Virus record (IMG/VR): IMGVR_UViG_3300038620_000126 | Coordinates: 32,001-96,000 of that record | Reading direction: 5' to 3' (one strand) | Source of the DNA: a virus | DNA: 64,000 nucleotides | Shown: one piece after another, positions 13,001 through 52,096 of the stretch | How positions within the stretch are numbered: position 1 is the stretch's first letter | Layout of the letters: each line of letters starts with the position of its first letter | Made by a program: the position numbers and the translations under genes | The notes under the pieces: model-generated | Told to the model about the DNA's origin: nothing | Database searches by the model: none | The model's input: only the letters and a program-made list of their open reading frames with translations

Positions 13001-14365
13001 TTAAACTATTACTCTACCTTCAACATCAGAAACAGCTTTAACATCTTCTTTTGTGAAATCTTTTTTATTTTCATCACAAATAAAATCACCCCCAACTTTT
13101 TCAGGAGCACCTTCAAGGGATGTTAAATTATTACCAAAACAATCAAAATCACCCCCAACTTTTTCAGGGGCACCTTTAAGAGATGTTAGACTATTACCAA
13201 GACAATTAAATTCACCCCCAACCTTTTTAGGTGCATCTTCAAGGGATGCTAAATTGTTATGGGAACAATCAAAATCACCCCCAACTTCTTCAGGTGCACC
13301 TTCAAGTGTTGTTAATTTATTACCAGAACAATCAAAATTACCACTAATATATTTAAGCCTGTAATTGTTTATAATTTTTTTATAATTTTTAGGGTTGAAC
13401 TTTAAATTTACATTACCTTTAATGTTAACTATATTTCCATCTATTTCAAATGTCCCATCAACAACATAATTTAATGTTTCTTTTGGGCTTGAAGAGAAGC
13501 TATTTATATCATAAGATTTAAATTTATCAATAACATCTTTCTTAAAAAATACGGCTTGTTCAGGTTCATTGGGATGAATAAACCAGTCTTCACCTTTATC
13601 AATAAAACCTTCAATATCCAAGTCCAAGTAAATTTTTGTTTTAAATTGTATACTTTTATCTTCTCGTAAAGCTAAATCAACATAGTTATTTACAAAAAAC
13701 CAAAGTGTTTCAACCGTTGGTTGATAATTTTTAGTATTACGCATTATAGTATGACTTAATTCATTCCATTTTGCTGAATATTTTCTGGAATATGTTAAAC
13801 TATTTAAATTAGTTTTCATTTTTTTAAAACTTTCTTTTCTTTCTGATTTATTATTTGATTTCATAGCTTTTATATAGTTAAACAATAAATCGAAAGCATC
13901 TTGTGGAAGATTATTTTTTAATTTCTTGTTAGACTTACAAATTTTGTAGAACTTTTCAATATGTTTAAGAACTTCAGAATCATGAGTTAAAATTTTACCT
14001 TTTTGAATTTTGTTTTCTTTAATTTTAAATAAGTGAATTACATTAGACATATTAGGAATAAAAGGATAAAATCGTTCTAATCTTTCTTTAATTTTTTCAT
14101 TAGGAGTACTATTTGTAAAACCTGCTGTTATCCTATTATAATCTTCTTTGTTAAAAGGGTAAGCATAATATCCAGCGGGTGTATTATAACCAGTAAAAGG
14201 ATTTATAAATGTTACAGTATTTTTCCGTCGAAATGAAATAAACCAATTATCTAAACTGTCATTTCCAATAGTATTTTTAATAAATTCAACAATGTTTATA
14301 TCTCTATTGACTTCAGGGTTTCTTCGCTTTTCCGTTAAGTAATTTTGAAAAGACTTTAAACGCAT
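13001..14365 (-). CDS. Capsid-tagged protein: putative ART-like domain + 22-aa leucine-rich repeats
   Basis: N-term MRLKSFQNYLTE; TPAGYYAYP and EGFID..IHPNEPEQAVFF; four FDCxxNxLTSLEGAPEKVGG repeats. Confidence 0.7.
   Translation of the reverse strand: MRLKSFQNYLTEKRRNPEVNRDINIVEFIKNTIGNDSLDNWFISFRRKNTVTFINPFTGYNTPAGYYAYPFNKEDYNRITAGFTNSTPNEKIKERLERFYPFIPNMSNVIHLFKIKENKIQKGKILTHDSEVLKHIEKFYKICKSNKKLKNNLPQDAFDLLFNYIKAMKSNNKSERKESFKKMKTNLNSLTYSRKYSAKWNELSHTIMRNTKNYQPTVETLWFFVNNYVDLALREDKSIQFKTKIYLDLDIEGFIDKGEDWFIHPNEPEQAVFFKKDVIDKFKSYDINSFSSSPKETLNYVVDGTFEIDGNIVNIKGNVNLKFNPKNYKKIINNYRLKYISGNFDCSGNKLTTLEGAPEEVGGDFDCSHNNLASLEDAPKKVGGEFNCLGNSLTSLKGAPEKVGGDFDCFGNNLTSLEGAPEKVGGDFICDENKKDFTKEDVKAVSDVEGRVIV
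13080..13340 (-). repeat. 66-bp tandem coding repeats (LRR units, about 4 copies)
   Basis: aaaatcacccccaactttttcagg(a/g)gcacctt... recurs at 66-nt spacing. Confidence 0.9.
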
Positions 14366-14377
14366 TTTTAATTTTTT

Positions 14378-14650
14378 TTATTTATTTAAGTTATATTCTT
14401 TTATTACATTTTTAGTATCATAGTTAACATTATTAAAAATCTTATTGTCATCTAAATCAAAAGCTTTAAGTTTTCCTTTTATATTATAACCGAATTGTTC
14501 TGAATGGGCATTTCTACCTGAACCCCCACGCCTCAAAAAAGTTAATTCTTTTTTATTGAGATTCATTTGTGATTTTAACCAATCAAGAAAAGGTTTATAA
14601 TCTGTTTTCTTTTTTGATTTTACATAATCTTTGAATTTTTCTAGTTCCAT
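14378..14650 (-). CDS. Small basic protein, possible degenerate capsid tag (MELEKFKDYVKS)
   Basis: 90-aa ORF between the two LRR paralogs. Confidence 0.65.
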   Translation of the reverse strand: MELEKFKDYVKSKKKTDYKPFLDWLKSQMNLNKKELTFLRRGGSGRNAHSEQFGYNIKGKLKAFDLDDNKIFNNVNYDTKNVIKEYNLNK

Positions 14651-14664
14651 TAAACTGATTTTTA

Positions 14665-49343: not shown

Positions 49344-49350
49344 AGTAATT

Positions 49351-51015
49351 TTAATTTAGTGGTTCATTTATCTCACTAATGTAAATGTTAACAGAACTTT
49401 GAGTGTCAAAATTTGGAAGTTCTTCAAAGTAAATACCATTTCTGTCTGTCCAATCACCCCTAATAATTGGAACTTCTTTTTCTCCCAATATAATATTTCC
49501 ATTTCTATCTAAACCAGGGGTTTCATTGGAATTTGGTTTTTCTGCTTTTAGTTCTTCATTTTCTTTTGAAATAAAATAAACATCAACCCAGTCTACACCT
49601 TCTATTCCTTCAATTACATCAATTAAATCGGATTTAGGAATTTTAGTTCTGCGTTTTCTATTTACAAAATAATCTGAAAGACGTTCTAAAATTTCATTTC
49701 GAATAAGATTAGCATCATTACCTTGAAATATTCCAAGTTCAATCGTTAAAACGTAACGCCTTAGTGTTGGATTAACAATTTTAATAACATTTGTAATAAC
49801 TCGCTGTCCACTCTCTTCTATAAGATTTAAAAGCTTGGTTTTATTACGTTCAGACAATTTGAAAGCATCTATCGGAACGGTAAAATAATTTGTATTTGTT
49901 CCCAAAAACTTATAAATATTGGGTATTAACATAACATATACAACGTTATCATTTTCAGGATTATTATCTTCTGTCTTAGTCCAAACATCAATAAAACTAA
50001 AAGTGTTCAACTTTTGAAAAAATGTTCTTATGTTAGTTTTATTTGCTAAAACGAAATTTCTGCTCTGCTTAGGAGCTATTATTCTAGTAAATTCTGGGTC
50101 TTCTGCATTAGCACCAAGGTTAATATCGTCTACCATACCAGCTTTAAAAAACTGATTCAAATCCACACCATTACCCTGTATATCAAAACCCTGATCCAAA
50201 AACTGAAAATTAACATTTTCTTTCTTTTGAAGATTTCCAGCTTGTCCATTAGTAACTAAGTAATCAATTTCTATGTTTGCTCCGGGCGGTGGACGTTTTC
50301 CAAAATTTCCAGTTCCAAAGTAAACATCTATTCCTTTATTAATACCAGTTTTAAGTAAAAATCCCTCTGCTTCTCGCGGTATATCATAAAGACTATCATA
50401 CTTACTCCATTCTTTTCCATTAACTTTAACCCGCGTATATTGATGGTCTATTTGAACATTGGGTTTTACAGTTAGTGTGAAACTTTGAAGTTTTGTGCCA
50501 TTTCCTGTTTTTTGTTGGGTTTCAAATTTACCTTCAACAAGTTTAACATTAATAATTTCAGTAGGAACTTGTGGTAATGCTATTTGATCTGCATTAAGAA
50601 TAACCGTATAAATTAACCCATTTCCAGCTTCTCCACCAAGCCTAACTTTCGTATAATTTATTAAATAAGCATATTGACCCGTTATTTCAGATTGGGCACT
50701 TTTATCAAATACAATTTGAATTGTACCAGATGCAGACCTAGCATTTGTTGGGTTATGACCTGTAAGGCGAGCAAGCCCATAAATTGAGTGGTTTCTACGT
50801 GCTTCATTTATGTTAAGTTCAGCAACGGAGTCTTGAATAAAGTAAAATATTAGTTGGGCCAAATTTAACATGACTTGAAAAAGTTGACCCCACGGACTTC
50901 CTTCAGTAAACGTTTGACTTGCTTGTCTATAACGTTCACGCAAAAAGTCTTTTGCATCTGTTATTAATTCAGTTACTTGAACCCGTGATTTAGAAAAGAA
51001 TTTTTCAAATCTCAA
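49351..51015 (-). CDS. Baseplate wedge protein (gp6-like)
   Basis: SIYGLARLTGHNP..SASG, VYFGTGNFGKRPP.G.NI.IDYL.TNG..GN, IEGVDWV. Confidence 0.85.
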   Translation of the reverse strand: MRFEKFFSKSRVQVTELITDAKDFLRERYRQASQTFTEGSPWGQLFQVMLNLAQLIFYFIQDSVAELNINEARRNHSIYGLARLTGHNPTNARSASGTIQIVFDKSAQSEITGQYAYLINYTKVRLGGEAGNGLIYTVILNADQIALPQVPTEIINVKLVEGKFETQQKTGNGTKLQSFTLTVKPNVQIDHQYTRVKVNGKEWSKYDSLYDIPREAEGFLLKTGINKGIDVYFGTGNFGKRPPPGANIEIDYLVTNGQAGNLQKKENVNFQFLDQGFDIQGNGVDLNQFFKAGMVDDINLGANAEDPEFTRIIAPKQSRNFVLANKTNIRTFFQKLNTFSFIDVWTKTEDNNPENDNVVYVMLIPNIYKFLGTNTNYFTVPIDAFKLSERNKTKLLNLIEESGQRVITNVIKIVNPTLRRYVLTIELGIFQGNDANLIRNEILERLSDYFVNRKRRTKIPKSDLIDVIEGIEGVDWVDVYFISKENEELKAEKPNSNETPGLDRNGNIILGEKEVPIIRGDWTDRNGIYFEELPNFDTQSSVNIYISEINEPLN

Positions 51016-51103
51016 TATAAGTTTTTCTTTATTTATTTAATAAAATATTTAGAAGTTTAAAAGTACCTTTATCAAAAATAAAAATAAATAAAGAAAAAAC
51101 AAA

Positions 51104-52096
51104 ATGAATATAAAATCATTTGAAGAATTTTTATTTGAAATGAAAAGGGGGCCTGAGGGGTATCAAGGAAATGGTTGGCAAACCGGTTTATTTGGGGGTG
51201 AAGTTGATACCCACAAATCAATGCATATTATAGGCAGAAACGTTACACATGCAGCAGACGATATAATTAACAGTTTAAAATCACAAGACAAAAAATTAGC
51301 AAGTACATTTGAAAGACTAATGGATAAAAATCCCGCTTACTTTTTTGAAATACTAAGTATAGTTTATCAAGTAGTTACAGGAGACTTAATTAGTAAAACA
51401 TCTAAAAATATAACAACACCAGAAGAACTGGAAGAAGAAATACATGATGCTGCAAATGAATTAACCGAATACATAAAAGATGCAATTGGTAAAACGGATT
51501 ATTTACAAATTGAAAACAGGTACAAAAAAATAATTTACTATATTTTAGAAAACTTTGATTTTTCTAATACAGGAAAAGGAATAAGTTTAGAGGATATACA
51601 AATTATTCTTGATGGGTTTACATGGTATAATACAAGTAAGATAGCTCAAATGGATAAAGAATCTATGAGAGTTGCAACACGAGCTTATCATATTAAAACA
51701 AACTGGAAAGATTTAAGAAACACTCAAAAAGAACAAAATAAGTGGTTTGATCCTTGTATATTTTTTGGTAGGAAAGGGGAAAATAGAGATATAAAGTATT
51801 ATATAGATAACTTTTCAATAGAAGAATTACAGGCTATGATAAAAAGCCGAAATGAAGCTGGTAGAGCTTTAATTGATAAAAGACGACTTCCAAAGTCATT
51901 AAAAAATATTCAAAAATATAGTAATGAATGGAAGAAGAGAGAAAAAACCAGTCCGTGGTATAAACACTATAGAAAAAAAGAAGCTCTAAGAAGTACAAAT
52001 GCAAAAAGAGGTTATAAAATTAAACCCAGATTTAATCCAATGATTGTAAGCAAAGCACTAAAAGATAGCGGACTAAGAAACCCACCAATGACATGA
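51104..52096 (+). CDS. Capsid-tagged internal protein, unknown function
   Basis: MNIKSFEEFLFEM; AATAAATA upstream; own terminator. Confidence 0.78.
   Translation: MNIKSFEEFLFEMKRGPEGYQGNGWQTGLFGGEVDTHKSMHIIGRNVTHAADDIINSLKSQDKKLASTFERLMDKNPAYFFEILSIVYQVVTGDLISKTSKNITTPEELEEEIHDAANELTEYIKDAIGKTDYLQIENRYKKIIYYILENFDFSNTGKGISLEDIQIILDGFTWYNTSKIAQMDKESMRVATRAYHIKTNWKDLRNTQKEQNKWFDPCIFFGRKGENRDIKYYIDNFSIEELQAMIKSRNEAGRALIDKRRLPKSLKNIQKYSNEWKKREKTSPWYKHYRKKEALRSTNAKRGYKIKPRFNPMIVSKALKDSGLRNPPMT

Follow-up and report, generated by a model that had tools for sequence, protein, structure and literature searches.

A probable T4-type capsid-targeting leader on diverse late proteins of an uncultured, probably jumbo, phage

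Of the signals which direct proteins into phage heads, the capsid-targeting sequence (CTS) of phage T4 is, to our knowledge, the only one to have been mapped by experiment, and it tends to be seen as a peculiarity of the T-even phages with three or four clients. Here we describe a short peptide of similar chemistry (the tag) at the N-terminus of otherwise unrelated open reading frames (ORFs) in a 64,000-nucleotide stretch of viral DNA (the window), ie bases 32001-96000 of the single 110,246-bp virus contig IMGVR_UViG_3300038620_000126, which has a G+C content of 30%. Coordinates are window positions unless marked "genome", which refers to the whole contig. CheckV puts the completeness of the contig at approximately 41%, from which the phage would probably be a jumbo phage with a genome of roughly 270 kb. 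Judging from the sequence, the peptide is probably both a T4-type CTS and a prohead-protease propeptide, which would target the protein to the head and be removed by proteolysis.

In the T4 genome (NC_000866) the internal proteins (IPs) IPII and IPIII start with MKTYQEFIAE, and IPI starts with MKTFKEFTS...ITE. Packaging of IPIII requires no more than its first 10 residues, and suppressor mutagenesis assigned targeting mainly to residues 4 and 7, and processing to residues 8 and 10 (PMC9026906). The internal proteins of T-even phages are a diverse set in which the CTS alone is conserved (PMC3012670), and head-internal proteins of giant phages have long N-terminal propeptides which are thought to target them to the prohead (PMC5694885); this kind of system is therefore already known. 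What is new is the known T4 CTS principle in a distant lineage, with a larger and more varied set of clients, a cassette mechanism and a kinship between the tag and the scaffold. No paper describing a shared capsid-type leader for this phage lineage was found in the literature.

A first-pass annotation of the window had listed 14 instances of the tag, and all of them were recovered where it had placed them. Nine ORFs among these have a strict N-terminal tag (those ending or starting at 14365, 16326, 23479, 24294, 25682, 26216, 35269, 46962 and 51104). Of the 111 ORFs of the contig, 11 have the strict pattern F-x-[EQN]-[FY]-[ILV]-x-E beginning within their first 25 residues, compared to a mean of 0.04 and a maximum of 1 in 1000 per-protein shuffles, and to 0.17 expected from the rate of the motif in the rest of the proteome. 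The proteome was also scored with a position-specific scoring matrix (PSSM) built from the tags. All 11 strict tags rank highest, at 20.8-29.9 bits (11.8-28.4 with each tag left out in turn), followed by a C-terminal copy in the ORF at 47834-48475 (19.9), by an internal site of a 2977-aa protein (16.0) and, further down, by the variant N-termini of the ORFs at 45870, genome 16900, 39865 and genome 12675. With the proteome reversed, a single score of 16.3 was obtained, the next being at most 10.4. In total the contig has about 16 N-terminal tags, counting a 27-aa relic at 48472, and 12 of them are within the window. The tagged ORFs outside it are at genome 11552-11980, 12675-13388, 16900-17253 and 24530-25636. 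The internal site mentioned above, IKTTNEFLIE at residue 2554 of the ORF at genome 100457-109390, scores level with the best null score, and could be an internal protease site or due to chance.

The tag Glu is at residue 12-25 in the 11 strict ORFs. Counted from this Glu (position 0), all 11 have F at -6, an F or a Y at -3, and one of I, L and V at -2, positions which correspond, with the same spacing, to residues 4, 7, 8 and 10 of the T4 IPII/IPIII CTS. The leader consensus is K-[TS]-F-x-[EQ]-[FY]-[ILV]-x-E, with MQLKTFDEFISE, MNIKSFEEFLFE, MRSKLPTFNEFIKE and LPTFNEFIKE as examples; it is predicted to be hydrophilic and helical, and not a signal peptide. The aliphatic position is encoded by seven codons (TTG, TTA, CTT, ATA, ATC, ATT and GTT), Ser by both AGT and TCT, and the residue before the Glu is free. 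Outside two near-identical cassettes (see below), this codon variety indicates selection on the peptide and not on the DNA. When the first 22 residues were removed, the sole BLASTP similarity between tagged bodies was that of 13001-14365 and 14665-16326, two paralogs with leucine-rich repeats (LRRs), so the earlier description of the tagged ORFs as otherwise unrelated is borne out except for this pair. So is the absence of the tag from replication genes, for those identified: none was found on the genes for DNA polymerase B, an AAA ATPase, an SbcC-like ATPase, an N6/N4 methylase, dCTP deaminase and a PNKP phosphatase. The tagged ORFs of the window, with their putative cargo lettered, and the ORFs with related sequences are as follows.

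13001-14365, minus strand: cargo A, MRLKSFQNYLTE leader, N-domain of approximately 290 aa and 21-residue Cys-ladder LRRs
14378-14650, minus strand: 90-aa ORF with a weak tag, MELEKFKDYVKS, lacking the Glu
14665-16326, minus strand: cargo B, MKLLNFYEYLTE leader, a paralog of cargo A (50% identity) with more LRRs
23081-23479, minus strand: cargo D, MRSKLPTFNEFIKE leader, 132 aa, very acidic (pI 4.2)
23581-24294, minus strand: cargo E, MRSKLPTFNEFITE leader, 237 aa, basic
25101-25682, minus strand: cargo F, TTG start, MKNKLPTFSQFIKE leader, 193 aa, basic
25695-26216, minus strand: cargo G, MSSFIPTFSEFLFE leader, 173 aa
34778-35269, minus strand: cargo H, MKSKLPTFNQFVNE leader with a second INE site seven residues on, 163 aa
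39865-40395, plus strand: 177-aa ORF with a degenerate tag, MRIKSFQEYNKSKYSE, and a GTG start 13 nt after AAATAAATA
45870-46946, plus strand: cargo I, MRLKSFQEYINSSSINE leader, 358 aa, HELMH motif
46962-47825, plus strand: cargo J, TTG start, ...KIPNFSEFLNE leader, domain of approximately 260 aa
47834-48475, plus strand: protein K, 213 aa, no N-terminal tag, ILTFFEFLNE at residues 200-209, four residues before the C-terminus
48472-48555, plus strand: 27-aa relic, MKLKSFENYITEKRKKPDKN..., a broken N-terminus of the A/B (LRR) family
51104-52096, plus strand: cargo M, MNIKSFEEFLFE leader, 330 aa, basic

Genes of a T4-like head module are also present in the window. Three were identified.

2179-3858, plus strand: portal protein, T4 gp20 homolog (tblastn against T4 gene 20, E 2e-23)
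18810-20630, minus strand: major capsid protein (MCP), gp23 family (Pfam Gp23 PF07068, E 3.6e-12, above the cut-off; phrog_138)
20676-22982, minus strand: prohead protease S77 (gp21-like) fused to a scaffold-like region (Peptidase_S77 PF03420, above the cut-off)

The gp20-like portal indicates that the head module is T4-like. A 634-aa ORF at 26838-28742 was also considered as the portal and rejected; it had no PDB match, and the actual portal is the one given above. The MCP matches T4 gp23 by BLASTP with an E of 0.003, and has a candidate propeptide site, GPLNE/AGQ, at residues 52-54. Protease and scaffold are a single 768-aa protein, in which the S77 domain occupies residues 15-207, approximately, and the other 560 residues are scaffold-like. 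The S77 domain matches T4 gp21 (E 1e-7), with GEMDHP aligned to GELNHP and ISSRAAG to VSSRGLG; GEMDHP and ISSRAAG are taken to be the catalytic His and Ser blocks. By tblastn this domain matched gp21-type proteases in 1396 phage records, and the match of the scaffold-like region to T4 gp22 is weak (E 0.04). Residues 472-611 of the scaffold region have six copies of Y-[ST]-[EDQ]-x-[ILV]-x-E (NYSENIAE, DYTEELRE, DYSEFIAE, NYSDKLKE, NYTETIAE and HYSESVDE) at a spacing of 14 or 29 residues, ie six in 140 residues compared to three in the other 33,800 or so residues of the proteome. The uncultured relative LR756500, with a 51%-identical protease(-scaffold), has 14-residue repeats of the form Y-x-x-x-[IV]-A-E (NYVNTIAE, NYVKYVAE, QYMEHIAE, SYTQYVKE). 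Taken together, these repeats make the tag look like one scaffold repeat set at the N-terminus of the cargo. A likewise kinship is seen in T4, where gp22 begins with MLKEQLIAE and has several K-I-A-E sites.

The tagged genes were also said by the first-pass annotation to follow, for the most part, a late promoter. A[AT]TAAATA is found 7-24 nt before the start of 13 of the 17 ORFs matching the regular expression for the tag, compared to 30 of the 94 others, so the claim holds for the majority of tagged genes with the addition that the motif is also found at untagged ones. Among the latter are several very large ORFs and the genes for the portal, the protease-scaffold and the baseplate wedge. 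The motif of the tagged genes is AATAAATA, and since motifs of this type also precede portal, protease-scaffold and baseplate genes, it would appear to behave as a late, structural promoter. The consensus of T4 late promoters is TATAAATA, to which AATAAATA is close. At four tagged genes, the promoter is part of a larger unit.

23431-23546, minus strand: 116-nt cassette comprising a terminator hairpin, AATAAATA, an A-rich leader and 12 initial codons of the tag

Further copies are at 24246-24361 (92% identity), 25634-25749 (61%) and 35221-35336 (60%). A cassette of terminator, promoter and tag could allow new genes to enter the head route through recombination. A different type of promoter was observed in the upstream regions at genome 15557-16757 and window 41720-41932, where several small non-structural ORFs have sigma-70-like TTGACA-N17-TATATT/TATAtt elements in front of them. 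These elements probably serve as promoters of early genes, which in a host from the Bacteroidota would be odd.

On the T4 model, the tag would act as follows. Each tagged gene would be transcribed late from its own AATAAATA-type promoter. The helix-prone leader would then bind to the scaffold core of the assembling prohead, probably by mimicking the 14-residue Y-[ST]-E-x-[IL]-x-E repeat of the scaffold, and the shell would close around the core. The scaffold-fused serine protease of the gp21 family would cut after the Glu of [ILV]-x-E, so that the leader is removed and the scaffold is chopped. The mature proteins would stay in the head with the DNA and, by analogy to T4 IPI-III and Alt, at least part of them would be ejected into the next host. 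Packaging, cleavage, ejection and scaffold binding are what we infer. That all tagged proteins are host-acting enzymes is a weaker proposition, and some of them are probably core or DNA-associated proteins.

Compared to T4, the leader is likewise a 10-19-residue N-terminal sequence on unrelated late proteins with diverse cargo, and it has the same K-T-[YF]-x-E-F-I-x-E chemistry, ie aromatic residues three apart followed by I-x-E. The S77 protease of the gp21 family, the gp23-family MCP, the gp20-like portal, the scaffold rich in I/L-x-E and a similar motif of the late-promoter type are also shared, in a lineage which, from its sequences, is very distant from the T-even phages. The differences are in scale and make-up. 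There are about 16 tagged genes in 41% of the genome here, compared to three or four in T4; the cargo reaches 553 aa and includes LRR, ADP-ribosyltransferase (ART)-like and HExxH modules, whereas that of T4 consists of small basic proteins; and the protease and scaffold are fused here, with a regular scaffold repeat which the tag copies. The phages phiKZ and SPN3US (gp175/gp245, S77) are likewise jumbo phages with a protease of the gp21 family and many propeptide-bearing head-internal proteins (PMC5694885). Their propeptides are mostly longer than 100 residues and have no one shared short motif, in contrast to the short, uniform, T4-like CTS described here. Their cleavage rule is reportedly S/A/G-x-E, from the work of Thomas and Black. 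The polymorphic internal-protein loci of T-even phages, in which CTS-like leaders are found on variable basic proteins, are matched here by the 116-nt cassette. Unlike those loci, the tagged genes are dispersed over at least 70 kb, they encode large multi-domain proteins, and whole domains (N-domain, LRR) have been re-assorted behind variants of the tag.

The tag was also looked for in other phages. Relatives were sought in IMG/VR using a degenerate DNA pattern for P-T-F-N-E-F-I-x-E. Two of the eight matches (L004 and L008) were discarded as chance, being internal to ORFs in unrelated phage DNA which uses Shine-Dalgarno (SD) sequences; contigs were also found in which an ORF preceded by the same promoter has the match at its N-terminus. 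Two contigs of related jumbo phages were read whole, one of 81.7 kb (31% complete) with seven tagged ORFs, the other of 60.9 kb (23%) with 13. They have few genes in common with the present contig, and these are mainly cargo, among them the LRR proteins (59% identity) and the acidic protein (54%). Between phages the tags are 64-87% identical, even on non-homologous bodies. Domains have been re-assorted as well: a tag may be followed by the A/B N-domain on its own, and the LRR array is found after a different variant of the tag and another N-domain. Two more small contigs have three tandem small genes starting with M..IPTF[QN]EF[IL].E. A search for the protease in four related fragments (6-31% complete) found nothing.

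As a reading of the peptide, the proposal of capsid targeting made in the first-pass annotation is upheld to the extent of a T4-type leader on diverse late proteins, on the strength of the MCP, the S77 protease, the CTS positions and the relatives; the further claim of a payload is upheld in part. Several observations count against it. The instances at 14650 and 39865 lack the Glu or the aliphatic residue, and one copy is C-terminal (48440-48469), which the simple model leaves unexplained. The S77 rule [ILV]-x-E is short and common, with 32 such sites in the protease-scaffold protein alone. Ejection is known for the T4 IPs and Alt, and is not readable from sequence here. As the contig is about 41% complete, part of the machinery is unseen. 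Finally, no such tag was found within 20 kb of the MCP gene in Flavobacterium phage MaF61 or in LR756500, which are more distantly related and have the same MCP family, from which the tag seems to be lineage-specific.

It is rather unlikely, in our estimate, that the tag does target the prohead core but that most tagged proteins are assembly parts like T4 gp67, gp68 and IPIII and not effectors which act early. Such a role would agree with the position of the cluster at 23081-26216, directly upstream of the protease-scaffold and MCP genes, and with cargo D, which is small and very acidic like T4 gp67. Most of the small tagged proteins are, moreover, Lys-rich with a pI of about 9, as are the T4 IPs, and have no recognisable enzyme family. 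However, several tagged proteins are large and multi-domain (LRRs of the InlJ/SspH2 type, an ART-like fold, HExxH), and bodies are swapped between phages while the tag stays, a pattern typical of conflict genes.

Two further explanations dispense with head targeting. The shared 5' end could be a cassette of promoter, leader and start at the DNA or mRNA level, disseminated by recombination and serving strong late translation in a host without SD sequences, with the peptide as a by-product. We give this very little credence. The 116-nt block, which two genes share at 92% identity and which can still be discerned at another two, the position of the tags directly after the late motif and A-rich leader, and the lack of SD sequences upstream would all be accounted for, but the codons vary while the classes of residue are kept (seven aliphatic codons and two families of Ser codons), approximately 30 other late genes have the same promoter without the peptide, and the peptide is found again within the scaffold protein and at the C-terminus of one ORF. 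In addition, these four positions have a function in the CTS of T4 (PMC9026906). That the leader is recognised by some other partner, such as a modifying enzyme (radical-SAM, as for ribosomally synthesised and post-translationally modified peptides, RiPPs), a chaperone, a secretion route or the assembly of tail or baseplate, seems to us just as improbable. RiPP-like systems also have shared leaders on unrelated proteins, and some tagged genes (45870-48475 and 51104) are among baseplate and tail genes. Against this, a check of the 110-kb contig revealed no radical-SAM gene, and the leader is hydrophilic and helical by prediction, unlike a signal peptide, fits the determinants of the T4 CTS, has the S77 cleavage rule at its end and follows the pattern of the scaffold repeat. 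A T4-type CTS which is also a propeptide is therefore the reading that we prefer, and the cargo is described below in its terms.

The first-pass annotation had seen in the cargo a large enzymatic payload of ARTs, a protease, LRR binders and an acidic protein. The LRR and acidic proteins are upheld, one ART-like fold (46962-47825) has weak support, the second "ART" has none, and the "protease" amounts to an HExxH motif. The LRR domains of cargo A and B are confirmed, and are of the InlJ/SspH2 type. Cargo A, with the late motif 13 nt upstream, matches Internalin-J (3bz5) in its LRRs with an E of 4e-7, and the LRR DNA consists of 63-nt tandem repeats. The LRR region matches InlJ (E 6e-11) and SspH2 (E 5.5e-8) in NCBIfam, with Pfam LRR_4 below the cut-off in cargo B. 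The N-domain of A and B, approximately 290 residues, has just three members in a large protein database. Between the two genes, the 90-aa ORF at 14378-14650 is 91% identical to the first 45 aa of a 275-aa ORF in one of the relatives (G001). Cargo D, which has a 54%-identical homolog with the same tag in another relative (G002), is next to the protease, and by analogy may be a part of the prohead core like T4 gp67 and not an effector. The start of the ORF at 39865 reads MRIKSFQEY, and no [ILV]-x-E is found there. Most of the cargo, including E, F, G, H and M and the four tagged ORFs outside the window, had no match in Pfam, PHROGs or NCBIfam from which a function could be assigned. One gene within the tagged cluster has a recognisable family.

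24357-25019, minus strand: S-adenosylmethionine (SAM)-lyase-family gene (PF23780 S-AdoMet_lyase, E 1.2e-9, 38.6 bits compared to a cut-off of 28)

This gene lacks both the aromatic tag and a promoter motif of its own. Its product has an N-terminal K-S-D-Q-I-N-E, which from its sequence is a possible protease site; a SAM lyase packaged in the head would, if true, be unusual.

Cargo I had no family match in HMM or PDB searches. It has an untagged 213-aa paralog at genome 109430-110071, with 32% identity to its C-terminal 200 residues, in which the motif is kept as HEVLH; the tagged copy has an extra N-terminal part of 130 residues. Cargo J belongs to a family with 892 representative homologs at an E of up to 0.001, often free-standing proteins of approximately 260 aa and sometimes inside proteins of 1400-2700 aa. 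An AlphaFold2 (AF2) model from a 60-sequence alignment had a predicted local distance difference test (pLDDT) score of 88.5. In the model, the tag is within the first 30 residues, a low-confidence stretch (mean pLDDT about 50) in which residues 11-17 form a short helix; the confident domain follows. In an exhaustive comparison with VIA-align, ART toxins made up 10 of the best 14 chains, at Z scores of 4.0-5.5, a range flagged as weak; these were TreX, Scabin, pertussis S1, CARDS, mosquitocidal toxin, pierisin, PltA and diphtheria toxin. The nearest named clusters in the ESM Atlas were likewise ART clans (Arr, DarT/PARP and Tox-ART-HYD1), at 0.84. Foldseek gave nothing significant (E at least 0.16), J matched no Pfam family, and no ART family was matched across 60 homologs, one of which had a weak match to PF07149 Pes-10 (E 0.0053). 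All members of the family have H133, H214, D217 and Q221, and almost all have S208 and E219. An ART-like fold is thus weakly supported by the model for J, with a putative enzyme activity.

No homolog of J was found in deposited phages. Among short homologs from other metagenomes, an N-terminal stretch scores at least 6 bits on the tag PSSM in 8 of 104, compared to 3 of 1038 internal stretches, with leaders such as MKYIKVFESFLFE and MKSFKQFLIE. Eight other homologs (P0190, P0200, P0212, P0214, P0215, P0223, P0256 and P0260) begin with MI[KR]L[KT]..., with [LI]-x-E soon after, which on sequence is a second type of leader on the J domain. The same domain with different leaders in different phages is as expected if each leader suits its own head machinery.

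Protein K is the second supposed ART, and this assignment is unsupported: it had no match in PDB, Pfam or NCBIfam, and no homologs were found. Its single-sequence AF2 model was poor (pLDDT 41), hhalign against the J family gave a probability of 1.7%, and the FRG, TAS and EHE motifs were found by eye only. Its last 14 residues, ILTFFEFLNERKQL, resemble the leader of J and abut the tag of the relic ORF, so that two tags are in tandem at 48440-48555. An out-of-frame LRR-like remnant, DDFNCIANKK, follows the relic ORF. The tandem tags may be a scar of recombination between tags. The C-terminus of T4 Alt is likewise processed (PMC9026906). Close by, the ORFs at 48708-49343 and 52180-53001, beside the baseplate-wedge gene, start with M-x-x-Y-F-K-G followed by ...NFINE and ...EYLLNE, respectively; possibly they carry a different leader ending in [IL]-N-E. 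The ORF at 48708-49343 has the C-terminus ...EFTFFINEK.

The contig has no terminal repeats, and a megablast with a 10 kb query found no close DNA relatives among deposited phages. The nearest MCPs in deposited phages have at most 34% identity (an uncultured 462-kb phage, Lak megaphages, Tenacibaculum, Chryseobacterium and Flavobacterium phages, and Sphingomonas phage PAU), the closest in a set of 5.8 billion proteins at most 41%, and a single-protein scan of IMG/VR gave no MCP relatives. The host is likely to be one of the Bacteroidota. A direct repeat of 161 nt, its copies being 93% identical, is found at 17916-18076 and 18666-18826. One copy overlaps the start of a homing/HNH endonuclease gene at 16371-17930 (phrog_3339, E 1e-108) and the other the 3' end of the capsid gene, which looks like a duplication from insertion of the endonuclease beside the MCP gene. 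Genes for tRNA-Pro(TGG) (34668-34740) and tRNA-Arg(TCT) (41589-41662) are both on the minus strand. At genome 19689-21126 there are four tandem paralogous ORFs of approximately 120 aa, three starting with MINIKKRK and one with MINRKKKK, directly upstream of a 635-aa ORF with a GTG start.

The presence of the four determinant positions in a distant jumbo lineage and its relatives suggests that the label is ancient or strongly convergent. The tag could be used as a search key for head-loaded proteins. Anti-defence and host takeover are functions for which proteins delivered together with the DNA are prime candidates, and a sequence rule which lists these proteins in uncultured phages would lead directly to their genes. 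A testable structural hypothesis for the action of the CTS is also provided by the match of the tag to the scaffold repeat. A bolder and tentative version, which we regard as possible but doubtful, is that the CTS is a grafted scaffold repeat from T4 to distant jumbo phages, so that cargo would get into the head through co-assembly with the scaffold, and that the tagged proteins here are an injected arsenal (LRR binders, an ART-like enzyme, a metallopeptidase-like protein and perhaps a SAM lyase) acting before phage expression. If the scaffold-mimic rule were true, the whole injected proteome of uncultured T4-like phages would be readable from sequence, and the cassette-shuffled arsenal would be the phage counterpart of the effector repertoires of secretion systems.

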